A DNA stretch of 64,000 nt from Sedimentisphaerales bacterium (lineage in GTDB: Bacteria > Planctomycetota > Phycisphaerae > Sedimentisphaerales > UBA12454), in NCBI GenBank assembly GCA_016930635.1, contig JAFGGI010000042.1:2901-66900 (forward strand). Direction: 5' to 3'. Positions 3,879 through 46,965 of the stretch are shown in pieces. The notes under the pieces were generated by a model, which saw only the letters and a program-made list of their open reading frames with translations, did no database searches and was not told where the DNA came from. Position 1 is the first letter of the stretch; each line of letters begins with the position of its first letter. The position numbers and the translations under genes are program-made.

Positions 3879-5702
3879 ATGTGTACTAAACGCATAAGTC
3901 CTTTAAAGACAACATGTTATCTGCCAGCTTCAATCCTCGCTATTCTTTGTATCTCATTCCTGGCCCAACCGTGTTCGGCTAAAATCGACAAAACCAGGTA
4001 TATAACTATTGATGAGATTTCCCCCCAAATGGACGCCGTATGCCTGACTATATATAAAGGTGTAGAGATTGAAAAATTCAATATGAAAGTCGTCGATGTC
4101 GTCAGGGACATTTCACCAGGCAGGGATGCCATCCTTGTTATGGGCACCGATGAACGCTTTATCCACACCGGACCGGTCGCAGGATGCAGCGGCTCTCCGG
4201 TATATATAGACAACAGGCTCGCAGGAGCGCTGGCCTTCGGATGGCCTTACAGCAAAGACCCCCTTTACGGCATTACACCAATAGCTGAAATGCTCCAGGC
4301 AGGCCAATATGACCCTGAACAAAAAACATCCATTTCACCAAAACTGGATTTCTCCAGTCCGATCGACCTGGCAAAAGCTTACCAACAAACAATAAACCAC
4401 GTAAAGCTTGCCGCTCCTGAAAACGGACCAATGACTATGCTCCCATGTCCATTGGCTACCTCTCTGCCGCAAAACTCATTCAAGGAGTTTGAAGATATAT
4501 TTGAATCACTCGGTTTTTTACCTGTATCTGTCCCGGCCGGTACCTCTGACAGACTCTCCGAATATGCCGATACCCCGATCGAGCCGGGCAGTTTGATCAC
4601 TCTGCCGCTCGTTTATGGGGACATAGATTTATCTGCTGCCGGTACAATCACCGAAGTTATAGGAGATAAAGTTTACGGCTTTGGTCACAGCTTCGTCGGT
4701 TACGGACCCGTTGAATTTCCGATGGGAAAAGGATATGTACACACGATTGTAGCAAGAATTACCAGGTCGTTCAAATTCAGCCAGACAATTGATATTGTAG
4801 GAACCGTATATGCCGACCAGTCAACTGCCATCGTCGGCCAGATCGGCAAAAAAGCCAAAATGATTCCCATGCGATTGAAAACAGAAAGATTCAATGATGT
4901 AAAAGAACGCCTTTACGATTGTCAGATCGTATCGGATCGATATTTCACCCCTCTGCTGGCCGGAATGTGCCTCGAAGCAGTCTCAACAATGCTCGGCAAC
5001 CTTCCAATGGACCACTCTATACAATATAAAATACATCTCGGTATAAAGGGATATGATGACATAACTTTTGAAAATTTCTCGAGCGCCATATATCTTAAAG
5101 AATGTCTGATGGACGCCACAGGAGCTTTAGCGCTCATTATGAATAATCCATATGACAAATGCGAAATAACCTCGCTTGATTTCGAAGTAAAGATAATGCC
5201 GAAAACAGAAGTCTCACACATATGGAGCTTCGATCTTTCGGATACCACTGTAAAACCAGGCCAGACAATAAATGCTATCGTAACACTCGAGTCTTACCTT
5301 ACAGGTCACAAAGACTATAAAACACAGCTGACTATCCCGGATAATACACCGCCGGGGACATACAAACTCCTGCTTACGGGCATAAGAAACTATAGAAACT
5401 TCATAATGAAAACCGCACCATATAAATATACACCTGAAAATCTGCCCAGCCTGATAAATATTATAAATGATATCGCAAACACAAAAAGAAATCAGATGTA
5501 CATGATTCTCGAGCTGCCGGACGAAGGTATTACTATCGAAACTGCGCAGCTGCCGGACCTGCCGCTCAGCAAAGCAATGCTGCTCAAAGACAAAAAACGC
5601 TCGATAACCACAAAACCTGCTGCTCAATGGCTTGAAAAAACCATACCAACCGATTCCATCATAATTGACAGCAGATATATAAATATAACGGTAGAAGAAT
5701 AA
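3879..5702 (+). CDS. secreted peptidase S55 (SpoIVB-like) domain protein
   Basis: 607 aa with a signal-like N terminus. It has a chymotrypsin-style GCSGSPVY motif and a SpoIVB-like AAGTITEVIGDKVYGFGHSF segment. Confidence 0.6.
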   Translation: MCTKRISPLKTTCYLPASILAILCISFLAQPCSAKIDKTRYITIDEISPQMDAVCLTIYKGVEIEKFNMKVVDVVRDISPGRDAILVMGTDERFIHTGPVAGCSGSPVYIDNRLAGALAFGWPYSKDPLYGITPIAEMLQAGQYDPEQKTSISPKLDFSSPIDLAKAYQQTINHVKLAAPENGPMTMLPCPLATSLPQNSFKEFEDIFESLGFLPVSVPAGTSDRLSEYADTPIEPGSLITLPLVYGDIDLSAAGTITEVIGDKVYGFGHSFVGYGPVEFPMGKGYVHTIVARITRSFKFSQTIDIVGTVYADQSTAIVGQIGKKAKMIPMRLKTERFNDVKERLYDCQIVSDRYFTPLLAGMCLEAVSTMLGNLPMDHSIQYKIHLGIKGYDDITFENFSSAIYLKECLMDATGALALIMNNPYDKCEITSLDFEVKIMPKTEVSHIWSFDLSDTTVKPGQTINAIVTLESYLTGHKDYKTQLTIPDNTPPGTYKLLLTGIRNYRNFIMKTAPYKYTPENLPSLINIINDIANTKRNQMYMILELPDEGITIETAQLPDLPLSKAMLLKDKKRSITTKPAAQWLEKTIPTDSIIIDSRYINITVEE

Positions 5703-5726: not shown

Positions 5727-7952
5727 ATGAAAAAGCTGTTTTTTACTCTTATAATTCTAACTGTCGCCGTTAATTGTCTCGCCGTTACAAGCAGGATCAT
5801 CAGGCATAAATCCGCAAATGATTTTTCTGATGGCAAAACGAAAGATACCGTCGTAAATTCCCGAGGTAATATCACCCTCGCCTGGGCAACTCAGGTATTA
5901 GCCCAGGATTTCAATAATGTCTGGATAATAAATTCAATCATAAAAGGCGATGACGGTACTGTATATCTCGGCACAAGTCCCAACGGAAAAATATATACCT
6001 ATAAAGATGAAAAAACCAACTGCATCTATCCCGTTCAAAACCAGAAGATAGAAACAGAAGAACCTGACGACCCAAATGATCCCAACGCACCAAAACCCGG
6101 CCCCGCTCAAAAGCACCTTCAAAATCTCCACGTCTTCAAACTCGCCTTCGACTCCTACGGCAGACCCATGGCAGGCATAAGCGGAGACAAAGCCGGCCTT
6201 GTACGATTTAATGGAAGAGAATTTGAAACACTCTTCGAGCCTGAACCGAATGATGCTTCATACATTTTTGCTGTCGAACTCGACAACGCCGGCAACATCT
6301 TTCTGGGTACTGGTCCAAAAGGCAATATCTGGCAGCTCGACAAAAAAGGAACCAACCCGACACTCATTTATACATGTAAGGACAAAAACGTCCTCTGCCT
6401 TGCTATGGGCAATGACGGTTTCTTATATGCAGGCACGGACACCAGAGGCCTCGTCTATAAGGTCGACCCTAAGAAAAAAACCGCTTCTATACTTTATGAC
6501 AGCGATGAAGACGAAATAACCGATCTTGTCTTCGACGATAAAGGCCAACTCTACGCCGCCGCCACTTCATATAAATCGATTAAAGCTCAGTTGAAAAAAA
6601 CCGATTTTACTCCAGCAGTATTTTCTGCCGGCAGACCCGAAAGTGAAGATGACACCGAAGAATCCGAAAGCAAAACAACCTCAGTTACAATTCCTAACAG
6701 CGGCTCAGAAGACCAGCCCAAAGAGACTCCCAAACCGCCGGACAGTCTTAAAAGAGGCCGACAGTCTTCTGCCAGTCAAATATACAAAATAGACCCAAAC
6801 GGTTTCGTAACAAAAGTCTTTAGCCAAAGCGCTGTCTTTTTCGCCCTGTATATACATAAGGATGATATCCTTCTCGGAACAGGGAACGAAGCACAAATGT
6901 TCAGCATTAATCCTCAAACCGAAATAGAAACTCTTATTTATGAAGACGAATCCGCCTCACAGATAACCGACATAATATCAGCAGATAAAGATGTATACTT
7001 CTGTACCGCAAACCCGGCTAAACTCATACTGCTCAAATCAAATTACGCCGACAGCGGCACATTCGAATCGACACTTATCGACGCAGGCCAGCCCGCACAA
7101 TGGGGTAAACTCCAGCTTGATGCTGATATACCTGATAAAACCAAAATAATGCTATCCGCAAGAAGCGGAAATGTTGACGACGTCAACGACCAGACATTTT
7201 CCAACTGGACCGAACCTGTAAAAATAACAACCCCCATCGACCTGACCGTACCGCTTGGAAGATTCTGCCAGTACAAACTCACCCTCGAAGGCAGCCAGGA
7301 CAAAACACCTTTCATACGCGAAGTCGCTGCAGCTTTTGCAATACCAAATCTCGCTCCAAAAGTAATTACGGTAACTGTAGAGAGAAAAAACAAAAAAGCA
7401 GACCCCGGCATCTTCAAGATCGACTTCTATGCCGAGGATAAAAATGCCGATAAACTCACATATAAAATAGAATTCAGAAAAACCGGACGCACAGGCTGGA
7501 TTGAACTGGAAGACGAACTTGACAAGGAAAACTTCGAATGGGACAGCAAGACCGTTGAGGATGGCAGCTATGAAATAAAAGTTACCGCCTCGGATGAACT
7601 TGGCAACTCGCAAGACACAAAACTGACAGGTTCAAGAATAAGCGACCCCGTAATAGTCGACAATACCCCGCCTGTCGTTGACAAACATAAACTGCAAACC
7701 TCCGATGACAAAGCCGTATTGGAACTGAAAGTAAAAGACATCTACAGCGTTGTTGACAGCTTAAGCTATTCGGTTGACAGTAATGAAAAATGGGTCTCCG
7801 CCCTGCCGCAGGATAATATCTTCGATACCCTCGAGGAAGACTTTACTATAACAGTAACAGATTTAAAGCCGGGCCCTCACGTCCTGGCCGTGAAAATAGC
7901 CGATGCTGAAAATAACACAATGTACAAAACTTTTGATATCGATATAAAATGA
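5727..7952 (+). CDS. secreted beta-propeller repeat protein with C-terminal Ig-like domains
   Basis: Signal peptide MKKLFFTLIILTVAVNCLA. Blade-like motifs recur (DGTVYLGTSPNGKIYTY, GNIFLGTGPKGNIWQLD, DGFLYAGTDTRGLVYKVD, DDILLGTGNEAQMFSIN). The C-terminal segments are Ig-like. GAGG lies 6 nt upstream of the ATG at 5727; an alternative ATG is at 5715. Confidence 0.6.
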   Translation: MKKLFFTLIILTVAVNCLAVTSRIIRHKSANDFSDGKTKDTVVNSRGNITLAWATQVLAQDFNNVWIINSIIKGDDGTVYLGTSPNGKIYTYKDEKTNCIYPVQNQKIETEEPDDPNDPNAPKPGPAQKHLQNLHVFKLAFDSYGRPMAGISGDKAGLVRFNGREFETLFEPEPNDASYIFAVELDNAGNIFLGTGPKGNIWQLDKKGTNPTLIYTCKDKNVLCLAMGNDGFLYAGTDTRGLVYKVDPKKKTASILYDSDEDEITDLVFDDKGQLYAAATSYKSIKAQLKKTDFTPAVFSAGRPESEDDTEESESKTTSVTIPNSGSEDQPKETPKPPDSLKRGRQSSASQIYKIDPNGFVTKVFSQSAVFFALYIHKDDILLGTGNEAQMFSINPQTEIETLIYEDESASQITDIISADKDVYFCTANPAKLILLKSNYADSGTFESTLIDAGQPAQWGKLQLDADIPDKTKIMLSARSGNVDDVNDQTFSNWTEPVKITTPIDLTVPLGRFCQYKLTLEGSQDKTPFIREVAAAFAIPNLAPKVITVTVERKNKKADPGIFKIDFYAEDKNADKLTYKIEFRKTGRTGWIELEDELDKENFEWDSKTVEDGSYEIKVTASDELGNSQDTKLTGSRISDPVIVDNTPPVVDKHKLQTSDDKAVLELKVKDIYSVVDSLSYSVDSNEKWVSALPQDNIFDTLEEDFTITVTDLKPGPHVLAVKIADAENNTMYKTFDIDIK

Positions 7953-9972: not shown

Positions 9973-10857
9973 TCAGCCTAAAACCTCGTTGCACAGATTT
10001 GCGATTGAAACATAATCTGCCGAACTCAATTCTTCAGGCCTGTGATGAGGCTCGACAAATGCCCTCGAAAAAATATCCTCCCAGTTATGAACATTTGCCA
10101 GGCTGTCCTCTGTATATTTCACACAAGCCTTCATCATCTTTCTGCGATGCCCCATAAACAAATGCACCACCTCCCGAAACAGATTGATATTATGGATCTG
10201 TGATATTTTCTTTGAATCCCTGTCGAAGCGAACCATCGCCGAATCCACCTGGGGCTGAGGCCAGAACACCTTCGGCGAAAGTTTCCGCAGCACCCTGCTG
10301 TGGCCCGTCGCCGCCAGAAAAATGCTCAGCACCCCGTAATCCTCACTGCCCGCCTCGGCAACCATCCGCATCGCAACTTCCTTCTGCACCGTAACAATCA
10401 TCTCATCTGCAACAACATCCCCGGTCAAAAGATTAAGCATCACGCTTGATGCCGTACCGTAAGGAAGATTCGCCACCAGCAAAACGCGACCGAAAACCTC
10501 CTGCTGTGCCTCTTTTAGTTTCGCGATCACATCGGGATTTATCGAATTTTTATTTGCAAGAATATCTGCGTTTATTATCTCAAAATTACCCGCATTGCGG
10601 ATATGCTGTTCGGTTAGCTCAGCAAGAACACTGTCATATTCAACCGCTATCACCTTTCCCGCCCTTTTGACAAGCTCGCCGGTCAGTGAACCTGTACCCG
10701 AACCAACCTCAAGGACTATATCACTGTCGGTAACATTCGCATTCGAAAGCAGAAGCTCCATAAGGTTCAGATCGATAAGAAAATGCTGCCCGAGCCGCTT
10801 GTTAGGCTCAACCCCTGCACTCGACAACAATCGCTGTATCTCCGTTTTCGTCTGCAT
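9973..10857 (-). CDS. rsmA: 16S rRNA (adenine1518/1519-N6)-dimethyltransferase
   Basis: 294 aa with LGQHFLID and the SAM-binding VLEVGSGTGSLT motif. It lies downstream of pdxA, the classical pdxA-ksgA arrangement. Confidence 0.9.
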   Translation of the reverse strand: MQTKTEIQRLLSSAGVEPNKRLGQHFLIDLNLMELLLSNANVTDSDIVLEVGSGTGSLTGELVKRAGKVIAVEYDSVLAELTEQHIRNAGNFEIINADILANKNSINPDVIAKLKEAQQEVFGRVLLVANLPYGTASSVMLNLLTGDVVADEMIVTVQKEVAMRMVAEAGSEDYGVLSIFLAATGHSRVLRKLSPKVFWPQPQVDSAMVRFDRDSKKISQIHNINLFREVVHLFMGHRRKMMKACVKYTEDSLANVHNWEDIFSRAFVEPHHRPEELSSADYVSIANLCNEVLG

Positions 10858-11965: not shown

Positions 11966-12001
11966 ATATCGGTTAGCCCTGCCATCACTATGGCAGGGTT
12001 C

Positions 12002-12788: not shown

Positions 12789-14369
12789 ATGAGAGAATAT
12801 AGAAATATGTCAAGAATCGTTCTTTTAACCGCTTTAACTGTCATTTTCGCAGCTCAGCTCTCAGCGCAGCCGCCATACGGAAACAGCTCAAAAAAGAGGC
12901 TCTCCAGAGAAGAAAGAAGGCAGGCACTTGAGCAGGAGTCGCATAATGCAATAGAAGAAATTACTGATGGATACAGAGAATTAGTTGATCTCATCAACTC
13001 CGGCCAAATACCCTCCGAGCAGGAACTTAAACAGGCTTACAGAACTACTGTCAAAAACAAAAAATATCTGCCCGTACTTGACGACCCGGAGAAAATTATG
13101 TATCACACCCTCGCTGCATGGGTATATCATTTTGACCAAAAGTACGATAAGGCTTTAAAGCAAATCGATGCCGCCTCTAATATAGCCGCACAGGATCCGG
13201 ATGTCTTAAAAACATATTTTGCCCTCTCTGTCATTTATGCCGATTACGAATCCGCGATCGGAGCATTAATAAAAAATGATACCAGCAACCCTGAACAGGA
13301 AGAGTCAGAAGAATCAGAAGAATCGCAGGAACCTGATAAAACTATGGAAACAGAATATATTGAGCTCGATGTAAATTCCGTCCAGATTAAATTGCTCGGA
13401 AAAACATTCGATTTCAAACCTGACCCCGCCGACTCCTGGCAGCACCAGCGGGAAAATAAATCAGCTTGTATTCTTTTGTGGAGTTTCGACCCCGATGAAC
13501 TCGATAAATTTGAAATAATAGAACCTAATGAGCCTAACAAGCCTGATGACCCCAATGACCCTAATATGCCGAAAACTCCTAAGCCTGAACCTGCGTCAAA
13601 TAGCAAAAAATGGAAAATAAAAGGCGCACCGGAAATCGAAGATTTTTCAAATTTGCAAAATCAGTTCGAAAAAGACCAGGAAATCTGCTTTGCAGGCTTT
13701 AATTTAAATAGCCCCGATAAGAAAAAAAATATCAAAAACTGGCTGCGTAAAAATCCCCAAAGCTGGCAGCTATATTCTTTTTCTGATGAACAAAAGCAGA
13801 AAATGTTCTCATACTATGAAACTGATTTCAATAAACCAACATTACTGATTCTGACACCGGACAATACTATCAGATACGCCGGCCGGTTCGAAGGATTTCT
13901 GCCCGGAATGATTCTGAACAATATCCTCAAAAATTCATCTGAAACAGGATTTGCAGATACTGATACTTCACCTGCTGAACCAAAAGATACTGATATTCAT
14001 GAATCTGCCGAATCCGCTGCCGCGAAGACAGAAGAACAGCCGCAAATAGAAATTGTAAAAGAACAACCCCCAAAACCGGCTGAAACAGAAAAAAAACAAC
14101 CCAAAAAACCTGTTGAAGCAAGTAATCAGATGGACGAAGATTTCTTCGAACCACAGGCCGAAACACTGCTTGAAAGCGCCAGAACTTTCTTCAAAATCAG
14201 CAAAAAACTTCCGCATACTTCATATCAAAAACCTGTCGATATGTGCAGACGTGTAATAAAAGATTATCCAAATACAAAATACGTACAGCAGGCACAGATA
14301 CTCATGCGACAGGTCCCGCCGCAATATCGAAAAATGTATAATATCACTGATGAAGAATTAGGATTATAA
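12789..14369 (+). CDS. secreted hypothetical protein with acidic/Pro-rich low-complexity linkers
   Basis: 526 aa with a signal-like N terminus (alternative ATG at 12804). It contains EESEESEESQEPD and PNEPNKPDDPNDPNMPKTPKP linkers. The central part may be a thioredoxin-fold segment, but no CxxC is seen. Confidence 0.5.
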   Translation: MREYRNMSRIVLLTALTVIFAAQLSAQPPYGNSSKKRLSREERRQALEQESHNAIEEITDGYRELVDLINSGQIPSEQELKQAYRTTVKNKKYLPVLDDPEKIMYHTLAAWVYHFDQKYDKALKQIDAASNIAAQDPDVLKTYFALSVIYADYESAIGALIKNDTSNPEQEESEESEESQEPDKTMETEYIELDVNSVQIKLLGKTFDFKPDPADSWQHQRENKSACILLWSFDPDELDKFEIIEPNEPNKPDDPNDPNMPKTPKPEPASNSKKWKIKGAPEIEDFSNLQNQFEKDQEICFAGFNLNSPDKKKNIKNWLRKNPQSWQLYSFSDEQKQKMFSYYETDFNKPTLLILTPDNTIRYAGRFEGFLPGMILNNILKNSSETGFADTDTSPAEPKDTDIHESAESAAAKTEEQPQIEIVKEQPPKPAETEKKQPKKPVEASNQMDEDFFEPQAETLLESARTFFKISKKLPHTSYQKPVDMCRRVIKDYPNTKYVQQAQILMRQVPPQYRKMYNITDEELGL

Positions 14370-17689: not shown

Positions 17690-17957
17690 ACTTGTGCTAC
17701 CTGCCTTGGGGGGACTAAACCAGGGCAGGCAAAAAAAACAGCTCGAAAGAGCTTTAGAGTATAGAAAAAAACGCTCCGCCAAAAGTAGCAACAGCTTGAC
17801 AAAAAAGTAAATAAAATGGAACGCATTAAAAACCGGCTCGTACCGGTCGTAACTGTAAAAGGGCGTTCCTCTTGATTGTCCTGTTTGGGGGGATATGTAT
17901 AGTAAGAGTAGGTCGGGTCTCTGTTCTATTAGGGGACACAGAGACCCTCTTTTTTTG
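17690..17957 (+). ncRNA. candidate structured small RNA of unknown family (5' end uncertain)
   Basis: Non-coding gap containing nested hairpins: CCTGCCTTGG...CCAGGGCAGG near 17700-17730, AGCTC-GAAA-GAGCT, and GGAACGC...GCGTTCC enclosing ACCGG..CCGGT at ~17817-17870. It ends in a strong intrinsic terminator. No ORF of 60 aa or more lies on this strand. Confidence 0.3.
17915..17957 (+). terminator. rho-independent terminator
   Basis: Perfect 10-bp stem GGGTCTCTGT (17915-17924) / ACAGAGACCC (17938-17947) with a 13-nt loop, followed by TCTTTTTTT. Confidence 0.8.
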
Positions 17958-18166
17958 CGCTCACTGCCTGACGTATCACCAAAACAACCTGCAAAAATAT
18001 CATACTGTGAGTTTATAATCACATCCGCCGTTAACTTCTTAAACAAAACCGTTTACAACAAATAAAAAAAATACCTAACAACTCCTCTATCTCCTCATAA
18101 AAGCTGGTTAAACTAACCAGACTATAACTTGTACGAAAGGACAATAAGATTTTTATATCTTTTTGG

Positions 18167-21360: not shown

Positions 21361-21366
21361 TCCAAT

Positions 21367-21765
21367 GTCATTGCGAGGCGGTTGAAAACCGCCGCGGCAA
21401 TCTAAAAAAATATTTAGCCCCCGGTTTTACCGGGGGTTGATTAGCCCCGACCCCTGCGGTCGGGGTTTTATATTTAGCCCCACGACGTGTCGTGGGGTTG
21501 CTTTTCGTTTAACCCCCAGGCCTGCGTGCCCGTCCGAAGATTTATCGAAGGCGGGTGCCGGGGGGTAGTCATTCCCGAATTTATCCTGGGGGTCTCCTCC
21601 AAATAATCTGTGTCCACACAACGCGCGCTTAGCCCCCACCCCTGCGGTCGGGGTTTTATATTTAGCCCCACGACGTGTCGTGGGGTTGCTTTTTGTTTAG
21701 CCCCCGGACCTGCCCTGGGGGTTGTTCGTGTCATTGCGAGGAGTGTAACGACGTGGCAATCTCGG
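21367..21765 (+). repeat. tandem run of TTAGCCCC-stem-loop-GGGGTT hairpin repeats bracketed by two CATTGCGAG...GCAATCT elements
   Basis: Hairpins lie at about 21414, 21441, 21473, 21629, 21661 and 21697. A ~70-bp two-hairpin unit is duplicated (21441-21513 vs 21629-21700). Bracketing copies of GTCATTGCGAGG...GGCAATCT lie at 21367-21403 and 21729-21765. Confidence 0.85.
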
Positions 21766-28452: not shown

Positions 28453-30828
28453 TTAATTGTAAATCCCCCTCTCCAGCCAGTAGTCCATCAATATCGCAAG
28501 GTCGTCTATATCAACATCTCCATCAAAATCCAGGTCTGCCCAGTCACAGTAATAATTATATACCCCGCAATCATCCCGCAGCCAAAATTGCGCAAATACT
28601 GAAAAGTCTCTGAAGTTATTCCTCCCGTCCGTATAAATGTCCGCAGGCGATATCTGCCAGACCAAAATCGGATATTCATCGATTTGTATAAACCAGTCTG
28701 CCTCATTGCCGTCCGTATACGAAAAATCCCATCCTGCATCTATATACGTATTTATATCCTGCATTTGAGCTGTAGGCAATCCCGTTGCTCCGTTCGGATC
28801 AGGATCGCAATCGCCCACTCCATCGGTTGTTCCAGAAGTTTCTATGTCCCAGAAAGAATTGTCAAAATCATTGTTGCCGAAAACACTGCCCACCAGACCA
28901 TATCCTTCGGTAACTGCTGAGGTGCTGTAACAATTCTTTATATTGATATTGTAATTGTTTCCCATAAAAGCACCCCAATTCATTCCCAAAATACCGCCTA
29001 CACAGGAGCCGCTGACCGAACCTGTACTATAGCAGTTTACTATAAGACTGAAATCAGATTGCGTCGTTCCGACCAGTCCGCCGACTTCTTCGTTTCCGCT
29101 AACTGCACCCGTACTGTAAGAGCTGCTGATAAGGCCATCACTCATTCCAGCCAGCCCGCCGACATAATTTTCTCCACTGACCTGACCTGTATTGAAACAC
29201 TCTTTTATATAACCAAACGGATTTATATCACTATCCGCATTAATCCCTACCAGTCCGCCAAGATATCTGCCTCCTGAAACTATTCCGCTGTTGTGGCAAC
29301 CAGTTATAATGCCGTTGTTGTATCCTGCCAATCCGCCAACATAGTAGTTGCCATCAACTATCCCCTTGTTGTAACAGTTAATGATAACCCCGCCGTCATT
29401 ATCTCCCGCCAGAGAGCCGACATAGCTGTATCCAGCTACTTTGCTATCTTCCAGACCCAAATTACGGATCTGTCCTCTGGTGCGGCTAAACAAACCTACA
29501 TAATTTCTGTCAGGCATATTTATATCTGCGTTGCGGATAGTATTCCCATTACCTTCGAAGACACCCGTAAAATATCCAAAATCACCGATAGGATTAACTT
29601 GGGTACCTGCCAAATTTACATCAGCCATTAGAGCAATGTGTTTATTCAGAATATTGGTATATTGACTTAACAAAGCAAAATCTCCCGCCGTCCAGATTTG
29701 GTAAGGGTCTTGTTCGGTGCCGCTGCCTGAAAGAGGCACCGCCGGCGGCTCTGGAATAGGCAAACCACCGCTATTTTCCCAGGCTAATCGAGGATAATCC
29801 AATCCGTCGTCGATAACCCAGTTGTGATAGGCCCAGCCGGAATCTATATATGTATTGGCATCCTGCATCTGTACTGTGGTTTTGCCTGTCCCGCCGGAAC
29901 TTGTCATCTGACCGGATGTTTCGATGTCCCAAAAACACCCCGCGACAATAGTAGATGTACTATTTCCTATCAAGCCGCCAACTTCTTGATCTCCCAAAAC
30001 CAAACCTGCAGAATAACAGTTAATAATGAAACTTCCCCAATCATACCCTATTAAACCGCCAGTACAAAGTTTTCCTGTAACTGCTCCTGTAGCATAACAG
30101 CCGACAATGTTGCCTCCATTGCCTCCCACCAGACCACCGGCCATACCAAGAGAAGCACTACTGCTGTTCACTTCTCCGGCACTGTAACAATTTGTTACAC
30201 TTCCATAACCCTGGCCCACCAGTCCGCCGACATAAGAGCCGCCGTCGACCTGGATATCAGTATAACAGTTAGTGATACTACTGCCGATCCAACCTGTCCC
30301 TACCAAACCGCCAATATATAGACTTCCACTAACAGTACCTGTGGCATAACAATTTGTGATGGTACCATAGGAAGATCCCGCCAATGAGCCGATATCAGAA
30401 TCCCACGGATACTCTATACGGCCAATAATGTTAATATTTTCAAGGCCAAGATTTTTTATAATACCGCTTGAACCCATTGTTCGAAAAAACCCTATAAAAA
30501 GATCACTGCCATCAGAGGTATCGCCGGTGATAGTCACATTTGAAATTACATGATCATTTCCATCAAAGACACCGTTAAAATTCTTTGGAAGGACAGCTCC
30601 AGTAAAGCTATAACCGGCCAGGTCAATATCGTTTATAAGTTTAAGGCAATAGTAGAAATAGCCCCCATCTGCTCTCAGTTGCAAGAGGTCACTTGCACTT
30701 CCTATTCGATATGGATCATTCGGCTCACCGGTGCCGCCTGAATACTTGCCAAAACAACAGGACGCCAATAGAAATATTGATAGACTTACGATACTGATAA
30801 CTTGCAAAAAGCCTCTTTTCTTCTTCAT
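28453..30828 (-). CDS. GLUG-motif repeat surface protein with C-terminal dockerin-like domain
   Basis: GGAGGG lies upstream of the ATG at 30828 (MKKKRGFLQVISIVSLSIFLLASC signal peptide); the track ORF extends to 30888. There are two modules, each opening with G-x-G-x-x-DPY-x-I. Repeats of the form YVGGLVG/GGLIG are numerous. The C terminus is DLDFDGDVDIDDLAILMDYW. Confidence 0.75.
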   Translation of the reverse strand: MKKKRGFLQVISIVSLSIFLLASCCFGKYSGGTGEPNDPYRIGSASDLLQLRADGGYFYYCLKLINDIDLAGYSFTGAVLPKNFNGVFDGNDHVISNVTITGDTSDGSDLFIGFFRTMGSSGIIKNLGLENINIIGRIEYPWDSDIGSLAGSSYGTITNCYATGTVSGSLYIGGLVGTGWIGSSITNCYTDIQVDGGSYVGGLVGQGYGSVTNCYSAGEVNSSSASLGMAGGLVGGNGGNIVGCYATGAVTGKLCTGGLIGYDWGSFIINCYSAGLVLGDQEVGGLIGNSTSTIVAGCFWDIETSGQMTSSGGTGKTTVQMQDANTYIDSGWAYHNWVIDDGLDYPRLAWENSGGLPIPEPPAVPLSGSGTEQDPYQIWTAGDFALLSQYTNILNKHIALMADVNLAGTQVNPIGDFGYFTGVFEGNGNTIRNADINMPDRNYVGLFSRTRGQIRNLGLEDSKVAGYSYVGSLAGDNDGGVIINCYNKGIVDGNYYVGGLAGYNNGIITGCHNSGIVSGGRYLGGLVGINADSDINPFGYIKECFNTGQVSGENYVGGLAGMSDGLISSSYSTGAVSGNEEVGGLVGTTQSDFSLIVNCYSTGSVSGSCVGGILGMNWGAFMGNNYNINIKNCYSTSAVTEGYGLVGSVFGNNDFDNSFWDIETSGTTDGVGDCDPDPNGATGLPTAQMQDINTYIDAGWDFSYTDGNEADWFIQIDEYPILVWQISPADIYTDGRNNFRDFSVFAQFWLRDDCGVYNYYCDWADLDFDGDVDIDDLAILMDYWLERGIYN

Positions 30829-30936
30829 ATACCCTCCTGCAATCTGTGTTAGATACACCAAATATTGATTATACCACAAATTGCCCAAAAATCCAGAAAA
30901 ATTACTCCTCTAAGTTTTGCTTGTCCCGCACCATTT

Positions 30937-31554
30937 TTATATTCCGCTTTTAACCGGTGCGGGGAAATTGAGGACCGCAAATTCGCCATGTAATTCTTTC
31001 GCAGCGGCGTCATATGCCCTGGCAGCATCTATTTCGTTATCAAAATATCCGAGATGTTTCCTTTTACTGTTAAAACATATAGCTGCGTGCCATTTTTGTT
31101 CCCTTTTAGCATAGTGGACTCCTCTGTATTTTGAGGTGCCTGTTTGCGGACGTATTCGGTTGCAGGAGTTCTGGGAGCGTGTTGCGAAGCGAAGATTTTT
31201 TCTGGTGTTATCGAGGCCTTGTCGGTTTTTATGGTCAACTATTTTTCCTTTTGGAGCGTTCATAATAGTTCTGTGCATATGAATTACTCTGCCGTTATCG
31301 AGGCAGGCGGCGTAATGGGTTTTGCATACGGTCTCGAAGAGCTGCCAGGGATATTTTGATATTTTTTTGTAATCTTCAGGGTCGATGATGGCATATTGAT
31401 ATTTTTTATCGACTGGTTTGTTTGTGAGCAGTTTTATCCGCCTGAAGGCAAAGCCGTAGCGCTTTTGTCGATAACACAATAAAAACCAGAGACAGATACT
31501 TTCGATAATAACCGGTATTTTAATTCGAAAATTCAGATACAATGTTATCTCCAA
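30937..31554 (-). CDS. HNH endonuclease fused to an AP2 DNA-binding domain (homing-endonuclease-like)
   Basis: 205 aa with the HNH_3-type IVDHKNRQGLDNTRKNLRFATRSQN, followed by the AP2 signature SKYRGVHYAKREQKWHAAICFNSKRKHLGYFDNEIDAARAYDAAAKELHGEFAVLNF. The start codon is uncertain. Confidence 0.75.
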   Translation of the reverse strand: MEITLYLNFRIKIPVIIESICLWFLLCYRQKRYGFAFRRIKLLTNKPVDKKYQYAIIDPEDYKKISKYPWQLFETVCKTHYAACLDNGRVIHMHRTIMNAPKGKIVDHKNRQGLDNTRKNLRFATRSQNSCNRIRPQTGTSKYRGVHYAKREQKWHAAICFNSKRKHLGYFDNEIDAARAYDAAAKELHGEFAVLNFPAPVKSGI

Positions 31555-31912
31555 AAGAAACTCTAAATTCTAATTTCTAAATCCTCCCTATGGGACACCT
31601 TACGGCGGAAACAATATCAAATTACCAAAATTCCAATGATCAAAACGGTTTTGAGCATTTGAAAATTCATATTTTGAATTTGTTTAGTGCTTCGATATTC
31701 GGATTTAGGATTTCCATTGTTTTTTGCCTTTGGCAAAAAACAATGGCCCTCTATATATAGGGAAAAACTTGCGCGGTTTTTTAAAAAAAGTGCAAAAGAA
31801 AATTTTGTCCGGAATTCTAAGTCCTTGTGTAAAAGGGAGAAAAATTTTTTCATTTTTTCAAAGCGCGCAGGTTTTTTCTTGCGCGTTTTCGACCCAAAAA
31901 GGACAAAACTTA

Positions 31913-31981
31913 GCCACAAAGACACTAAGACTCTAAGAAAAAATAATATAATAATACTTTGTGTCTTCGTGCCTTGGTGGC
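31913..31981. repeat. imperfect inverted repeat built from AAAGACAC/CAAGGCAC/TAAGAC words
   Basis: The sequence is GCCACAAAGACACTAAGACTCTAAG-AT-rich loop-CTTTGTGTCTTCGTGCCTTGGTGGC. A second copy of the same design lies at 35771-35843. Confidence 0.7.
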
Positions 31982-32266
31982 TATTTTTCTATCCACAGAT
32001 TACACGGATTACGCTGATTTGTAATTAACCACGAATGAACACGAATTAACATAAATATGTCATTGCGAGCGTAGCGAAGCAATCTGAGCCCCGACCGTAA
32101 GGGAGGGGTATCCTGCAAATATACCTGTGCAAACACAACGCAACAGAGCCCAAGCGGCAGCGCAGGGAGGTATTATGATATCAAGGCCGCGGCAATCTCG
32201 GTTTTTCCAATTGAATTCTGTAAAAAATAAGGGTAGAATCGGGGAAACAAATAAGGAGAAAATCAA

Positions 32267-32875
32267 ATGAAAGTTGACTTCAGAAATTTGCCTAAGATAA
32301 AAATCATTAAAATTTCAAATGCCAAAGACGGCATTTGCATAGTACAGTTCAGTTCAAAGGATTGTATGTATAATGGGTGGGCAGATATTTTCGCAACTCC
32401 TGTCAAACTGATTAGTGGAAAGTTCAAGTTGCTATCTGACAATACAGGTGAATTGTCGCTGGAGACCCCAAGTGATATCTCCAGACTTAAAAGTGGTGAA
32501 GAGTATGAATTTATGGATGGTTACTGGGGAGAAAGAGCTCAATTTGTTCTTGAGGAAACGGTTTGGACCAAAATAGATTTTAAAACACAGGATTGTTATG
32601 GACAGCGTGATGAAAAAACCGGAAAAATTACAGTGATGAGTGCTCCAGGTTTTGTTCCGCCAAAAGATGATAAGTCATGGGTATTAGTAGAAAACGGATG
32701 GGATCACGAACATTGCGGTATATGCTGGGAGACAATATGTGACAAGGGATGTCATGATCAAGTATGTTACATAAACTCTAATAATGTATACATATGCGAA
32801 AGCTGTTATGAAAAGTATATTTCAAAGAAAAATTGGGATTTCACTGAATTAAACAAAGAAAGTGATGATGAATAA
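32267..32875 (+). CDS. hypothetical protein with C-terminal Cys/His-rich zinc-ribbon-like segment (cassette ORF 1)
   Basis: 202 aa with AAGGAGA 7 nt upstream of the ATG. The C terminus reads HEHCGICWETICDKGCHDQVCYINSNNVYICESCYEKY. No family was recognised. Confidence 0.55.
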   Translation: MKVDFRNLPKIKIIKISNAKDGICIVQFSSKDCMYNGWADIFATPVKLISGKFKLLSDNTGELSLETPSDISRLKSGEEYEFMDGYWGERAQFVLEETVWTKIDFKTQDCYGQRDEKTGKITVMSAPGFVPPKDDKSWVLVENGWDHEHCGICWETICDKGCHDQVCYINSNNVYICESCYEKYISKKNWDFTELNKESDDE

Positions 32876-32994
32876 CCCGGAGAGAACCCCGCCATTGAGA
32901 ATAGCAGGGCTAAACAAAAGGATTGAAATCACAAAAAATCAGGGTAGAATCAGGGGAAATAACATAAGGAGAGAACTGAATATCAACAATTAAA

Positions 32995-33249
32995 ATGAAA
33001 AATGGATATAAATTAATTTATGTTAGTAATGTATTTTGGATTGCGGCAATAATTGTCGCTATTCCTTTTGTTCGACGTTTTGTGGAGATAAGTGATGGTG
33101 ACTGCGTTACCATAGATGCTGTTATCGCTGGTTATGAAGTCTTGCCTTGGACTATTGGTAGTTTTCTTTTGTTATGTATATCATGGATATTCTTCTTCAC
33201 AGGTGTAATCCAATTGATCAGGAGTGAACAAAAAAAAGAAATTAGATAA
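32995..33249 (+). CDS. small hypothetical membrane protein (cassette ORF 2)
   Basis: 84 aa with two hydrophobic helices. It is preceded by the conserved leader with AAGGAGA and followed 3 nt later by the hairpin repeat. Confidence 0.45.
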   Translation: MKNGYKLIYVSNVFWIAAIIVAIPFVRRFVEISDGDCVTIDAVIAGYEVLPWTIGSFLLLCISWIFFFTGVIQLIRSEQKKEIR

Positions 33250-33400
33250 TAAACCCTGTCATTGCCGATGGCGGGGCTAAACAAAAGGATTGAAATCACA
33301 AAAAAATCAGGGTAGAATTACAAAGAATTAAGCAAGGAGATATAAAATCGACGAATTCAAAGAGACACTGTCAATCCTTAAGGCACGCTGGGGCGAAGTT

Positions 33401-34261
33401 GTGTTTATAGTCGGTCTTTCTTTGTTGGCAATGCTGTCGAGGCGATTAGCTCCATCCTTTTCCGGACATATATTTGTGCTGTTCTTCACTGGTATTATTA
33501 TATTTGTATTAATCACCTTGGCCACACTGGGCTTTCTAAGAACTATTTATCTTGACGCAAAAAAGCCCTGTTCGCCTTTCAGTCTCATCTTGATAGGCAC
33601 ACATTTTTTTTGGAGACAGGTCGGTTTTAGTCTGCTAATGGGACTCATGATGGCACCTCTGTTAATGGCTCTTATGTTAGTTAACAGAATAGATTTTTCT
33701 CCATCTGGATGCAAAACAGGCTCCTGCAGTACCGAACCAAACATAGTTTCCTGCACTGTCGATCCGAACACAGCTTCGGACAATACTGAATCCAAGCCGA
33801 ACCCCTACGGTTTAGATGTCAAGGGAAATGTAACCCTTAAGCATCAAATAGGTGTAACTATCATAATGTTAATATTTGCCAAGCTGAATTTATTAGTTCT
33901 TCCAATAATAATCGTCACTGACAACAGTATATCCAAAAGTTTCGACTGTATGTGGAAGATCAAACTGCGCAAGGCGAAAACATTATTAACGGTTTTTCTC
34001 GTCAATACTGTTGTCTTGCCATATTTGCTAAGGCCTCTGCCAAACCTTTATACATCCCCGCCGCAAATATCCTGGCTGTATATATTCGGTATATTATTTT
34101 TTGTCATATCAACAACTTTAGGGTTTGTTGTCCAAGTATTAGCGTTAAGATTTGTCAGCTCTGAGCCGATCATTGAAAATTATATGCGTCCACCTGATCC
34201 TGCACCGGTTGCCTATGATCCCGACTATGTCCCCGGCAATGAGGATTATATAGATTACTAA
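33401..34261 (+). CDS. hypothetical polytopic membrane protein (cassette ORF 3)
   Basis: 286 aa from GTG 33401. The frame is open back to 33332 and AAGGAGA sits at 33335-33341, but no ATG/GTG/TTG follows it, so the true start is uncertain. Confidence 0.45.
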   Translation: MFIVGLSLLAMLSRRLAPSFSGHIFVLFFTGIIIFVLITLATLGFLRTIYLDAKKPCSPFSLILIGTHFFWRQVGFSLLMGLMMAPLLMALMLVNRIDFSPSGCKTGSCSTEPNIVSCTVDPNTASDNTESKPNPYGLDVKGNVTLKHQIGVTIIMLIFAKLNLLVLPIIIVTDNSISKSFDCMWKIKLRKAKTLLTVFLVNTVVLPYLLRPLPNLYTSPPQISWLYIFGILFFVISTTLGFVVQVLALRFVSSEPIIENYMRPPDPAPVAYDPDYVPGNEDYIDY

Positions 34262-34531
34262 TTTGTATGTGAACGATAAAAACCCCGCCATTGCCAATGG
34301 CGGGGCTAACCGAATTTAAAAAATCGCACCAAGTACTATATACTAAATACCAAATACGTTATTAATCTGCGTAATCAGTGATTAAAAAATTTCGCCCCCA
34401 ACCATCTCACTTTTTCGCACTTTACCGACACCGCAACGTTACCGATACCGATACCAATATCTTTAATACTTTGTGCCTTTGTGTCTTGGTGGCTATTTAT
34501 TGACTCTCGCTTCCATTTGACTGGTTAGGCT

Positions 34532-35104
34532 TTACTTCCAAAATCGATACCATGGCTGTTTGGGTTTCAGATTTTGAGAAATGGGTACTGTCTTCAATCC
34601 CTCAATGAAACCGCAGGTTGCGATATTGAACCCAACTTCCAAGCCGATGCCAGGAGCACACTCACGAATGAGGAAAGCTACCGCTAAAGCGCATGATCGT
34701 GCCCCCTCCACAAGATCTAGCCCATGCTTTTCACGAATTCTGGTCAGGTCCTCTTCCAAAAGCTTCTGCATCTCATTCACGCTTAGCTTAGGAGCCTCTC
34801 CTTGGCTACTGTTCTTCTCCAACTTCTTTTTATCGATGGGCAGGTCAAACTGATATAGCATTGAAGCTACGATATCCACTAACTCTGGCCACTTCTCGTT
34901 CGCCTCGTTGGAAAGTACCGCTGATCCCGGCAACATGGTCGTAGTATCGAATCCAAACGAACGAAAGAGCATCGTGCCAGCCATTCGGGCACCCGCTGCA
35001 ATCGCTGTTTCCGGATGAACCGCACGGTTTTCCCCGAGTTTCCCAGCAAATATGTCGACCATTTCTCCTGCCGCATCAAAATGACGTTTCTCAATATTGT
35101 TCAT
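34532..35104 (-). CDS. hypothetical protein (single-gene insertion bracketed by direct repeats)
   Basis: 190-aa ORF with no recognisable motifs. It is flanked by 28-bp and 39-bp direct repeats. Confidence 0.5.
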   Translation of the reverse strand: MNNIEKRHFDAAGEMVDIFAGKLGENRAVHPETAIAAGARMAGTMLFRSFGFDTTTMLPGSAVLSNEANEKWPELVDIVASMLYQFDLPIDKKKLEKNSSQGEAPKLSVNEMQKLLEEDLTRIREKHGLDLVEGARSCALAVAFLIRECAPGIGLEVGFNIATCGFIEGLKTVPISQNLKPKQPWYRFWK

Positions 35105-35247
35105 TACATTCGTCCAACAATAATTTAGCTTGATCCGTGGCTAAAAAATCTCTGTGACCTCTGTGCTCTCTGTGGCAAAAACAAAATCCGTTTAATCTGC
35201 GTAATCAGTGATTAAAAAACTTCGTGTCTTAGTGTCTTGGTGGCTAT

Positions 35248-35748
35248 TTATTGACTCTCGCTTCCATTTGCCTGGTTGAATTTTGCCATTGCGATGGTAC
35301 CTGTACGCACCATATTTTTTATGCCGTAAGGTCGGCAGGCCTCTATAAAGGCTTCGATTTTTTCTTCAGGCCCGGCAAATTCGATCATAACAACCTTTTG
35401 GCCGATATCGACCACCTCGGCCTTGAACAGCTCGGCTAAGGCCAGTATTTCAGAGCGTTTTTCAGGCGGCAAATGAACACATATAAGCATCAGGTCGCGG
35501 GCGATCACCTCTTTGCCGGAGAAGTCCTGAATTTTTACGACATCGACAATCTTCGCGAGCTGTTTGCGCACCTGCTCTACGACTTTGTCGTCGCCTATAA
35601 CGACGATAGTCATTCTACTCATCTGTGGGTCATCGGTCCTGCCGACCGCCAGTGAGTCGATATTAAAAGCCCTTGCCGCGAACATTCCAGCCACGTGAGC
35701 CAGAACGCCGGGCTTGTTCTGCACTAATGCACTTATTATATGTTTCAT
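35248..35748 (-). CDS. ilvN: acetolactate synthase small (regulatory) subunit
   Basis: MKHIISALVQNKPGVLAHVAGMFAARAFNIDSLAV (ACT domain) starts at the ATG at 35748. The track ORF extends to 35775, into the intercistronic inverted repeat. Confidence 0.88.
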   Translation of the reverse strand: MKHIISALVQNKPGVLAHVAGMFAARAFNIDSLAVGRTDDPQMSRMTIVVIGDDKVVEQVRKQLAKIVDVVKIQDFSGKEVIARDLMLICVHLPPEKRSEILALAELFKAEVVDIGQKVVMIEFAGPEEKIEAFIEACRPYGIKNMVRTGTIAMAKFNQANGSESQ

Positions 35749-35770
35749 CTTTCTGCCCTTTCTTGTATCA

Positions 35771-35843
35771 GCCACAAAGACACCAAGGCACTAAGAAAAA
35801 AAATATTTATATTATAAACTTTGAGTCTTTGTGCCTTAGTGGC
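35771..35843. repeat. imperfect inverted repeat filling the ilvB-ilvN intercistronic spacer
   Basis: The sequence is GCCACAAAGACACCAAGGCACTAAG-AT-rich loop-CTTTGAGTCTTTGTGCCTTAGTGGC. It is the same word-built design as 31913-31981. Confidence 0.7.
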
Positions 35844-45699: not shown

Positions 45700-45820
45700 A
45701 TATTTAAGATTGATGAATTGCCTGTCGGCAATGTGGTTTTAAAAGACTTAAATATCGTCGCTGCGGGCGACGGCTAACTGAGATTCTTCACTTCCGCCGA
45801 TGTTAGAACTGTGGCGAGAG

Positions 45821-45864
45821 AAATAGGTGACTGTCCCTATTTAACTCCGTCCCTATTTAACTCC
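45821..45864 (+). repeat. AAATAGG-N8-CCTATTT palindrome repeat (left copy plus partial tandem)
   Basis: AAATAGGTGACTGTCCCTATTTAACTCC is followed by GTCCCTATTTAACTCC. Related copies lie at 46671-46738. Confidence 0.8.
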
Positions 45865-45868
45865 GCTT

Positions 45869-46609
45869 TCAGCGTCTAAATATTTTTCCTAAAATCCATA
45901 AAACAGTTGATCCTATCAATAACCATGTAAGGACTTTAGAAATCAGACCGATACTTTTTTCGCTCATTTTACGACTAAGTTCCCGGGATGTAAGCTTAGA
46001 CTTCTTAAACTTATGTCCCTCGGAATACCCAAACGAAGCTATAACATCATCAATCATCTTTAAAAAATTAGTCGAGTCCTTATCACGTGAATAGCAATTA
46101 AGTTCTGTTATTCCATTACTGCCTAATAATTTGACAACTACCACACATAATTTCCTGCCGTCATTATGCACATACTCCTTCATCGCGTAAGCAAAATGTT
46201 TGTCCAAATCATAATAGTCTTTAGAGGCTGTTTCTGTAAATTCCTTACTCGTCGTCCTCATCTGCCACATCCTCCAGTCTGCAAGATATCCGGTGTCTAT
46301 ATGTGGTTTATATGCAAAAGAAGATGCAAAGCTTTCAGCTTCATCACAGGTAGCCTCCTCGAACTTTCTATACTCAACTAAGATGCCCGGACTCCAATAA
46401 GGCTTATTTTCTGCTTCATGGCAAATAGTAACAACATTATTAAATGCTTTAACTAATTTTGCAGATATGTCTTTCGGCAAATCTGAAATAGCTGTACATT
46501 CCCATGAATCAGGTAATGTAAAAGAAATCCCGAGGCAAGGGTCACTGTATTGAGTTGCATAAACTATACTATGCAACATCAAAAAACAAACAAACGCTAT
46601 TCTTCTCAC
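45869..46609 (-). CDS. hypothetical secreted protein with C-terminal membrane anchor
   Basis: 246 aa with an N-terminal signal-like MRRIAFVCFLMLHSIVYA and a C-terminal hydrophobic helix LISKVLTWLLIGSTVLWILG. No family was recognised. Confidence 0.5.
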   Translation of the reverse strand: MRRIAFVCFLMLHSIVYATQYSDPCLGISFTLPDSWECTAISDLPKDISAKLVKAFNNVVTICHEAENKPYWSPGILVEYRKFEEATCDEAESFASSFAYKPHIDTGYLADWRMWQMRTTSKEFTETASKDYYDLDKHFAYAMKEYVHNDGRKLCVVVVKLLGSNGITELNCYSRDKDSTNFLKMIDDVIASFGYSEGHKFKKSKLTSRELSRKMSEKSIGLISKVLTWLLIGSTVLWILGKIFRR

Positions 46610-46670
46610 ATTAACTTCCTTTGGCTCTCTGAAACGTTAAGCATAAATCATAAATACATGGTATAAATAG

Positions 46671-46738
46671 TGGTATAAATAGGTGACTGTCCCTATTTAA
46701 TCCTGTGGTATAAATAGGTGACTGTCCCTATTTAATCC
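46671..46738 (+). repeat. two tandem copies of GGTATAAATAGGTGACTGTCCCTATTTAATCC
   Basis: The unit was read directly twice, at 46671-46705 and 46706-46738. It has the same core as 45821-45848. Confidence 0.8.
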
Positions 46739-46965
46739 TAACGTTTTGAAGAAATCATGTATAAATGTTTTAGTTTTTTTATCTCCCTGTTCTTCCATTT
46801 TTTTTAATTTTACCACCGGGGTGGGGAAAAGCGGAATAAAAAATTGGTGCGGGGCGGAAATTTTTTGTGGGATTTCAACCCCCGGTGAAATAAACCCTGC
46901 CATAGTGATGGCGGGGCTAACCTAAACAATAATACCCCCCGGCACAGGTCCGGGGGCTAAACTAA

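Follow-up and report, generated by a model that had tools for sequence, protein, structure and literature searches.

Background

In T4-like phages, promoter early stem-loops (PeSLs), each composed of a sigma-70 promoter and a stem-loop, lie in the interval from a stop codon to the Shine-Dalgarno (SD) sequence and start codon of the following gene (Arbiol et al., 2010, PMC2839356). They cluster in hyperplastic regions, beside genes whose function is unknown, and have been shown to drive modular shuffling and to yield mini-circles (PMC2839356; Comeau et al., 2014, PMC4122927). Intergenic junctions of which the PeSL appears to be the closest analogue were found in a metagenome-assembled genome (MAG) of a Sedimentisphaerales bacterium (locus tags JW806_*). 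There they accompany three unrelated open reading frames (ORF1, ORF2, and ORF3), which form a same-strand array between ilvN and ilvC. The stretch of DNA analyzed, hereinafter referred to as the window, comprises 64 kb of a 131.7-kb contig. On balance, the array is probably an islet of three unrelated, horizontally acquired, and separately promoted accessory genes, whose mosaic junctions were produced by homologous recombination, and may also serve as its substrates, in an insertion hotspot between ilvN and ilvC.

A second group of described elements, the repetitive extragenic palindromic (REP) type, consists of short stem-loops, one end of which is tagged with the tetranucleotide GTAG or CGTC (Di Nocera et al., 2013, PMC3733652). 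The hairpins of the array are members of a REP-like class of palindromes, tagged with TTAG/CTAA, that spans the lineage. An earlier note on this DNA had instead likened the layout to an integron-like or immunity-cassette system; this had to be abandoned, since no attC site, recombinase, or toxin or immunity family was found in the searches described below.

Architecture of the junctions

ORF1, ORF2, and ORF3 were mutually dissimilar (BLASTP, all E > 0.4). The repeated frame around these unrelated same-strand genes, pointed out in the earlier note, was recovered as three hairpins (H1 to H3), two spacers, and a partial third leader. A hairpin follows each stop codon, starting 9 nt after ORF1, 2 nt after ORF2, and 19 nt after ORF3: H1 (AACCCCGCCATTGAGAATAGCAGGGCTAA) at 32885-32913, H2 (AACCCTGTCATTGCCGATGGCGGGGCTAA) at 33252-33280, and H3 (AACCCCGCCATTGCCAATGGCGGGGCTAA) at 34281-34309, all given on the forward strand. 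The pattern AACCCYGYCATTG..GGCRGGGCTAA was matched at exactly these three places (0.00 matches expected), and the pattern AACCCYGYCATTGNNRATRGCRGGGCTAA also matched all three array hairpins (0.00 expected). They are single stems of 9-12 bp with 3-nt loops, 23-29 nt overall.

H1 and H2 run into spacers at 32912-32950 (39 nt) and 33279-33318 (40 nt), which have the same sequence except for one extra A. By its sequence, the spacer can be read as a promoter of the sigma-70 type, followed by an SD leader, and three junctions of this type were delimited on the forward strand. J1 (32912..32972) contains TTGAAA at 32923-32928, a gap of 16 nt, TAGAAT at 32945-32950, a leader resembling that of J0, and AAGGAGA at 32966-32972. 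J2 (33279..33340) contains TTGAAA at 33290-33295, a gap of 17 nt, TAGAAT at 33313-33318, a divergent leader, and AAGGAGA at 33334-33340. In J0 (32211..32259), which precedes ORF1, TTGAAT at 32211-32216 is followed after 17 nt by TAGAAT at 32234-32239, a leader, and AAGGAGA at 32253-32259; no tagged hairpin was found upstream of it.

The putative promoters of J1 and J2 (32923-32950 and 33290-33318) agree with the consensus at 10 of 12 positions and have an A-rich stretch upstream, and that of J0 (32211-32239) agrees at 9 of 12. They lie 27-45 nt upstream of the ORF starts, with AAGGAGA after each, and this SD sequence is located 15 nt downstream of the J1 and J2 sites. The reported passage of each spacer into the ribosome-binding site of the next gene was borne out in that AAGGAGA is present in both junctions, but in J1 it lies 22 nt from the ORF2 ATG, a poor SD spacing. 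In J0, the distance to the ORF1 ATG is 7 nt. As had been noticed, the 3' part of the leader also precedes ORF1: at 32222-32261, the -10 region, leader, and AAGGAGA recur as a partial third copy, with an identity of 73% when ungapped and ~88% when two 1-nt indels are allowed (a count made by eye on the alignment).

The junctions are mosaic. The hairpin, -35, and -10 of J1 recur in J2 (67 nt), and its -10, leader, and SD correspond to those of J0 (40 nt, ~88% with two indels); AAAAAAT(C/A)AGGGTAGAAT is the only stretch common to J0, J1, and J2. While the J0 leader is homologous to the J1 leader, the -35 region of J0 could not be aligned with those of J1 and J2. This mosaicism suggests that the junctions arose by duplication or recombination. 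The correctly spaced TTGAAT of J0, which lacks homology to the -35 regions of J1 and J2, hints at selection for promoter function. The misplaced SD of J1 in turn suggests that its promoter-leader module evolved apart from ORF2 and did not co-evolve with it.

Searches for the spacer covered the window, 185,579 species-representative genomes, JGI metagenome contigs, and IMG/VR. The window contained no further copy, and a strict junction pattern had no match in the species-representative genomes. A looser pattern of -10 plus SD gave three chance-level matches in the JGI metagenomes, two of them within coding sequence and one at an unrelated promoter-like site, and none in the IMG/VR viral contigs. 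The confinement of the spacer to this locus points to local duplication and not to a dispersed element.

In J1 and J2, the components follow in the PeSL order of stop codon, A/T-rich stretch, stem-loop, -35 and -10, SD, and next start; J0 is without the hairpin. As with PeSLs, the setting is a hypervariable region between conserved genes with downstream genes mostly of unknown function, the repeated copies constitute short homologies between unrelated genes, and a gene of homing-endonuclease type is nearby. Genes of this type are common in T4-like genomes. The array differs, however, in being located in a planctomycete MAG chromosome and not in a T4-like phage genome. It has 2.5 copies, with none elsewhere in the window, compared with ~50 for PeSLs. 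Its stem-loop belongs to a chromosome-wide class of tagged palindromes and lies upstream of the -35, which is true of one of the five PeSL subclasses. In addition, its hairpins appear weak as terminators on the forward strand. For PeSLs, mini-circles as well as promoter and terminator activity have been demonstrated; in the array, the corresponding activities are putative. Residence in a T4-like phage was rejected: the flanks are housekeeping genes, ORF1 to ORF3 match no PHROG family, and no relatives of ORF1 were found in the phage and viral collections. The array may represent a bacterial, chromosomal variant of PeSL junctions, for which we infer a recombination role from the mosaic structure and the context.

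A lineage-wide class of tagged hairpins

The hairpin is not specific to the array. It was found throughout the lineage, with ~12 copies in the window and a presence in 17 of 89 related loci (designated by L numbers where one has to be named). Loci in which the class was noted are L001, L005, L010, L015-L017, L019, L023, L025, L026, L028, L039, L045, L052, L064, and L094. Read on the strand opposite to that of the array genes, its layout is TTAG-CCC(C)-stem-loop-stem-GGG(G)-TT, in which the tag is unpaired and one-sided. The ~12 distinct copies in the window derive from 15 pattern matches, against 0.17 expected, and 11 were retained with a stricter stem filter. Of 90 GC-clamped CCC..GGG hairpins in 1.22 Mb of DNA from related Sedimentisphaerales/Phycisphaerae, 47 carried the TTAG/CTAA tag. 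Subfamilies such as CCCTGCCATAGTGATGGCAGGG were almost unchanged among genomes with IlvN identities of 75-80%.

Outside the array, tagged hairpins were located at 11973-12000, 21414-21723, and 46893-46960 in both orientations, and they face either way relative to the upstream gene. One lies between co-directional genes with PdxA and lumazine-binding domain matches, two are downstream of an oxidoreductase gene, and six are arranged in tandem in the gene-free cluster at 21414-21723. Within this cluster, an 85-nt block of three tagged hairpins is duplicated (21441-21525 and 21629-21713, 188 nt apart, 94% identical); the duplicated block is gene-free, is downstream of a gene with a TrkA-C domain, and resembles the clustering of bacterial interspersed mosaic elements (BIMEs). 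In L026, copies of the class are present on both sides of a gene that reads by its sequence as a pseudouridine synthase.

These features agree with those of REP, REPIN, and BIME elements, which are likewise imperfect palindromes of 20-40 nt in intergenic positions, often directly after stop codons, and occur in many copies, in either orientation, sometimes in tandem clusters, with a tetranucleotide at one stem foot and several subfamilies per genome. The array class differs in its tag, which is TTAG/CTAA and not GTAG or CGTC, and in near-identical subfamilies that span species-level and genus-level divergence. REPs and REPINs have a cognate REP-associated tyrosine transposase (RAYT; an IS200/IS605-type Y1 transposase), the gene of which is often flanked by the repeats, and the likeness drawn here is one of the palindromes alone. 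As a seemingly uncharacterized REP-like family across Sedimentisphaerales/Phycisphaerae, the class is relevant to the annotation of MAGs, since many false "conserved motif" signals come from it.

The three genes of the array

ORF1 (32267..32875, forward strand; 202 aa; JW806_06485) encodes a soluble protein that combines a beta-barrel at its N-terminus with a Cys/His motif at its C-terminus. Its eight homologues share a conserved GWDHEHCxxC...CxxCY in the alignment, and the AlphaFold2 model (pLDDT 89.5) consists of a beta-barrel and a small Cys/His domain. In a Foldseek comparison, the fold had no PDB match at E <= 1e-3, and a PDB sequence search returned nothing usable; a weak resemblance of the barrel to the N-terminal barrel of F1-ATPase (E ~1e-3, TM 0.3) was regarded as generic. 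No relatives were found in IMG/VR or GenBank phages. The neighborhood of the ORF1 homologues was different in each genome examined, and one relative of 32% identity sits in a mobile element with integrase, ArdC, and HsdM.

ORF2 (32995..33249, forward strand; 84 aa; JW806_06490) encodes a small membrane protein, in which the hydropathy profile marks two hydrophobic segments. Its single homologue (52% identity) lies within a packed run of small same-strand genes, and the alignment of M1 with M1 confirmed the ATG.

ORF3 (33347..34261, forward strand; 304 aa; overlapping JW806_06495) encodes a multi-pass helical membrane protein, as judged by hydropathy; it has homologues in 116 cluster representatives (~250 aa), and its AlphaFold2 model (pLDDT 86.2) had no PDB match in Foldseek. 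The start of this gene had been placed at a GTG at 33401 and was revised, since the Met1 of more than 100 homologues aligns with an ATC at 33347-33349, 6 nt past AAGGAGA. The homologue N-termini read M-D/N/T-E-F/I-K-E-T-L-S-I-L-K-A-R-W. The ATC could reflect non-canonical initiation, an error in the assembly, or a mutation that inactivated the gene recently.

No family was assigned to ORF1, ORF2, or ORF3 by Pfam, NCBIfam, PADLOC, or PHROGs, and the proposed kinship with immunity families found no match in profile or structure searches. The homologues of the three genes did not co-occur and had no toxin neighbors in the genomes examined.

The ilvN-ilvC insertion hotspot

Along the reverse strand, the order is ilvB, ilvN, and ORF190, followed by the array on the forward strand, an HNH_3 + AP2 endonuclease gene, a gene for a GLUG-repeat protein, and ilvC. 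The ilvN-ilvC gap of the window is 7,028 nt. In 49 related genomes with colinear ilvN and ilvC, the gap was <500 nt in 36 and 597 nt in one, and the remaining 12 contained 1.8-8.9 kb of cargo, read from translated ORFs as Feo iron transport, ABC transporters, methylase/restriction-like proteins, large secreted proteins, and others. No homologues of ORF1, ORF2, ORF3, or ORF190 were found in the ilv loci of these relatives. The GC content is 33-41% in the array and 44-50% in its flanks. Given this gap variation and the low GC content, the array is accessory DNA, located in a hotspot between ilvN and ilvC at which insertions recur. The wider flanks consist of housekeeping genes, including ilvBNC and those for UvrA, an MtnA-like protein, CorA, and an LpxA-like protein.

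The Pfam scan covered the array ORFs and 25 neighboring ORFs, at ~10.9-48.9 kb of the window. Among these, no recombinase, transposase, toxin, or immunity gene was identified. The only mobile-type gene near the array is the HNH_3 + AP2 endonuclease gene (HNH-AP2; 30937..31554, reverse strand), of a phage-like, homing-endonuclease type, with Pfam matches to HNH_3 and AP2 and a match to PHROG 99 (E = 1.8e-40). Homologues with 52-64% identity are directly beside ilvC in L010 (17188-17850), L013 (13565-14227), L019 (~13107-13694), and L020 (3254-2655); in L022 (6691-7293) and L023 (14011-14643), they are in the same region and do not adjoin ilvC. All four colinear loci with HNH-AP2 have ilvN-ilvC gaps of >3 kb. 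It is possible that this endonuclease drives the hotspot.

In Neisseria, minimal mobile elements place unrelated cargo between the same conserved genes, exchange presumably being by homologous recombination. The ilv locus is similar in that differing cargo lies between fixed flanking genes in related genomes. It differs in that the ilv inserts carry target duplications (of the ilvN end and ilvC start), in that the array genes are separated by duplicated regulatory junctions, and in that HNH-AP2 is conserved at the site in the closest relatives. The interpretation given in the earlier note was supported in part: the frame is repeated around unrelated genes, the gap is hypervariable, its cargo differs, and the ORF1 homologues are without synteny, but the junction has not spread, the spacer being local alone. 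The same note had considered two findings adverse to cassette capture, namely a junction confined to this locus with syntenic and invariant genes, or junctions that are copies of a genome-wide repeat with no association to variable gene content. The junction is indeed unique and its hairpin is a genome-wide repeat, yet the gene content is neither syntenic nor invariant.

Target duplications and direct repeats

Gene-bracketing direct repeats were enriched around the array, with four pairs in the 3.4-kb islet vs 0.56 per 10 kb in related loci. One 35-nt repeat brackets the whole array; its left copy is at 31952..31986 and its partner, 91% identical, at 34464-34498. It belongs to a palindromic intergenic element of the GCCACCAAGGCAC type.

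ORF190 (34532..35104, reverse strand), a gene of unknown family between ilvN and the array, is bracketed by a duplicate of the ilvN end. The duplicate at 34362..34526 comprises the last 30 nt of ilvN and the downstream sequence, has its partner at 35192-35277, and encodes NQSNGSESQ* in place of NQANGSESQ* of IlvN. The insert is ~750 bp with one gene, and it has an attL/attR-type target duplication and no recombinase. In L010, the closest relative, a ~110-nt duplication of the ilvN end and ilvC start (10490-10600 and 17860-17980; 80% identical) surrounds a 7.4-kb insert. It includes the ilvN end, the intergenic SD, and at least the first 15 ilvC codons, so that a 15-codon ilvC stub directly follows ilvN. 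Both hotspot duplications consist of unique target sequence and not of dispersed repeats. Single-crossover (Campbell-type) integration of circular DNA with a homologous segment yields target duplications of this kind, and integration of circular DNA by such a crossover may have produced those of the hotspot.

Homologues of array genes elsewhere are also bracketed by direct repeats. In L001 (Planctomycetes bacterium GWF2_42_9), the ORF1 homologue (47% identity) is surrounded by local repeats (151 nt, 89% identical; 5814-5962, 6679-6826, and 7013-7127), and no convincing promoter was found within the 170-nt repeats flanking it. The ORF3 homologue of L094 (35% identity) is bracketed by repeats of 43-52 nt (95-98% identical; 4611-4653 and 5740-5782). 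The bracketing repeats of both loci are built of intergenic repeat elements with sequences unlike those of the window.

Origin of the array and alternative explanations

In the explanation that we favor, each junction would be composed of the lineage-wide tagged REP-like hairpin and a promoter of the sigma-70 type that is preceded by an A-rich stretch and followed by an SD leader, and the copies would have been produced by duplication or recombination upon gene insertion. Once there, the junctions would give 40-67 nt of homology for the insertion, deletion, or swap of genes by ordinary homologous recombination, as PeSL cassettes do in the hyperplastic regions of T4-like phages. Such intergenic modules could thereby both express single accessory genes and supply short homologies for their gain, loss, and exchange. 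The hairpins would act as REP-type elements more plausibly than as terminators for ORF1 to ORF3, and H3, perhaps together with H1, could block antisense transcription from ilvBN. The pattern itself is real and non-random, and the DNA in which it is situated is variable; as a phenomenon, the array is small and local.

Several observations weigh against this explanation. There are only two full junction copies and one partial copy, and recombination is read from their mosaicism. Promoter-like sites were not in excess in the region (15 vs 12 +/- 4 in shuffles), so that the promoter call depends on position and conservation, from which we infer promoter activity. Two of the three genes may be weakly expressed or decaying, as the poor SD spacing of ORF2 and the ATC start of ORF3 suggest. 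Composite intergenic repeat blocks are duplicated without genes in L039, and the promoter-like spacer could be a passenger of a duplicating intergenic block. In addition, none of the three array hairpins is followed by a U tract on the forward strand, and H1 is unstable on that strand: its RNA fold has -5.9 kcal/mol (z = 0.5; no better than shuffles), compared with -16.5 on the reverse strand. H2 folds with -13.8 kcal/mol on the forward strand (z = -2.3) and weakly on the reverse strand, and H3 with -18.3 and -22.6 kcal/mol, respectively. A role of the hairpins as intrinsic terminators of ORF1 to ORF3 is therefore unconvincing. On the reverse strand, H3 is followed by UUUUUAUCGUU and would be a textbook terminator facing transcription from ilvBN/ORF190, the sole array hairpin to fit the definition.

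The most serious alternative, though an unlikely one, is that the repeated frame is an incidental segmental duplication in decaying, repeat-rich DNA, with no regulatory or recombinational role and with some of the ORFs being pseudogenes. The ATC of ORF3 in place of ATG, the 22-nt SD spacing of ORF2, the degenerate H1, the gene-free duplication of composite blocks in relatives, and the unexceptional number of promoter-like sites would all be accommodated. However, ORF1 to ORF3 are all intact, full-length members of families with homologues, and the 39-nt spacer is perfectly conserved amid diverged neighbors. J0 has a correctly spaced hexamer that resembles a -35 and is not homologous to those of the other junctions, and ORF1 and ORF3 have canonical SD spacings of 7 and 6 nt, respectively.

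A more far-reaching proposal, which we consider distinctly unlikely, is that planctomycete chromosomes use portable TTAG-hairpin terminator/promoter junctions as recombination handles that shuffle single-gene modules at ilvN-ilvC, as a cellular counterpart of PeSL shuffling in phages. HNH-AP2 might drive this process by breaks at empty or heterologous sites, and one-gene circles might reintegrate by single crossover, which would account for the target duplications in the window and in L010. If the junctions are recombination handles, a mechanism known only from T4-like phages, in which regulatory cassettes express as well as shuffle genes of unknown function, would extend to a bacterial chromosome and would offer a concrete model of the integrase-free traffic of small orphan genes into and out of a hotspot. 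The hotspot, with HNH-AP2 and the target duplications, constitutes a testable case of endonuclease-associated genome plasticity.

It is improbable that the 67-nt unit of hairpin and promoter is a small mobile element of the Correia type or a miniature inverted-repeat transposable element (MITE) that was inserted upstream of resident ORF2 and ORF3. Such an insertion would explain why the copies are the same over 39 nt while the adjoining hairpin and leader have diverged, it would give the downstream gene a promoter, and the SD of J1 is misplaced for ORF2 as if the two had not co-evolved. On the other hand, no further copy exists in the 64 kb or in the collections searched, terminal inverted repeats and target-site duplications are absent at the limits of similarity, and the hairpin part occurs elsewhere always without the spacer. 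A MITE or Correia element was rejected for the lack of these terminal repeats, target-site duplications, and dispersed copies.

Dedicated, integron-like cassette capture is very improbable. In this explanation, recombination would take place at the tagged hairpin, and a site-specific enzyme encoded elsewhere, or HNH-AP2, would insert hairpin-bearing cassettes serially. The array does share with integrons a succession of unrelated small same-strand genes, each followed by an imperfect palindrome with conserved flanks and a variable interior. The alternation of ORF and hairpin, the one-sided conserved tag and conserved structure with variable stems, the variable cargo, the conserved HNH-AP2 gene, and the target duplications at the hotspot insertions would also be in accordance with capture. 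However, no tyrosine or serine recombinase was present among the scanned ORFs, and neither IntI nor attI was found among them or at the locus. HNH endonucleases cleave DNA and do not integrate cassettes. Each gene has its own promoter-like site, whereas integron cassettes are mostly promoterless and expressed from Pc, and the hairpins also occur outside the array, in both orientations, in the gene-free cluster at 21414-21723, and beside the putative pseudouridine synthase gene of L026. An attC site is ~55-140 nt long with nested R''/L'' and L'/R', extrahelical bases, and a 3' GTTRRRY, whereas the array hairpins are simple stem-loops of 23-29 nt with a one-sided unpaired tag and without an R''/L''-L'/R' organization. 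As remarked in the earlier note, they lack a canonical attC core; the nearest core-like string, GTTAGCC, is at the 5' end of the reverse-strand hairpin and one position off. No dedicated capture machinery is evident among the ORFs scanned.

Orphan immunity genes of a polymorphic-toxin locus, which might be suggested by small unrelated same-strand genes in a variable region, two of them for membrane proteins, are largely refuted, as neither a toxin gene nor a C-terminal piece of one is located upstream (the neighbors being HNH-AP2 and the opposite-strand GLUG-repeat protein), no immunity or defense family was matched in Pfam, NCBIfam, or PADLOC, and the homologues of ORF1 to ORF3 are never together and are without toxin neighbors.

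Other features of the window

The window contains a single tRNA, at 61142. A search of 30800-35400 against Rfam with an E-value threshold returned solely spurious miRNA-type matches, which were to the long palindrome at 31900-31995. Two more intergenic repeat families were recognized in the window, namely long palindromes of the GCCACCAAGGCAC/GTGCCTTGGTGGC type, one of which gave the spurious Rfam matches, and elements of the form GTCATTGCGAG...GCAATC. Members of these families were located at 31912-31986, 34465-34498, 35216-35250, and 35770-35814, as well as at 21366-21400, 21729-21765, and 32059-32195.

A sequence family TTTACCGACACCGCGACGTTACCG(T/A)TACC(A/G)ATACCGATACCG is present in the hotspot of both the window (34400-34450) and L010 (15520-15570 and 16760-16810). 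Its L010 copies lie in 174-nt repeats around a 1.2-kb segment with two small ORFs. The three direct-repeat-bracketed segments of ~1.2 kb in L010, L019, and L023 proved to be mutually unrelated. Further along the window, a 246-aa ORF of unknown family (45869-46609, reverse strand) lies between copies of a 35-nt direct repeat, GTGGTATAAATAGGTGACTGTCCCTATTTAA, located at 45814-45848, 46670-46704, and 46705-46739, the two on one side being exact tandem copies.

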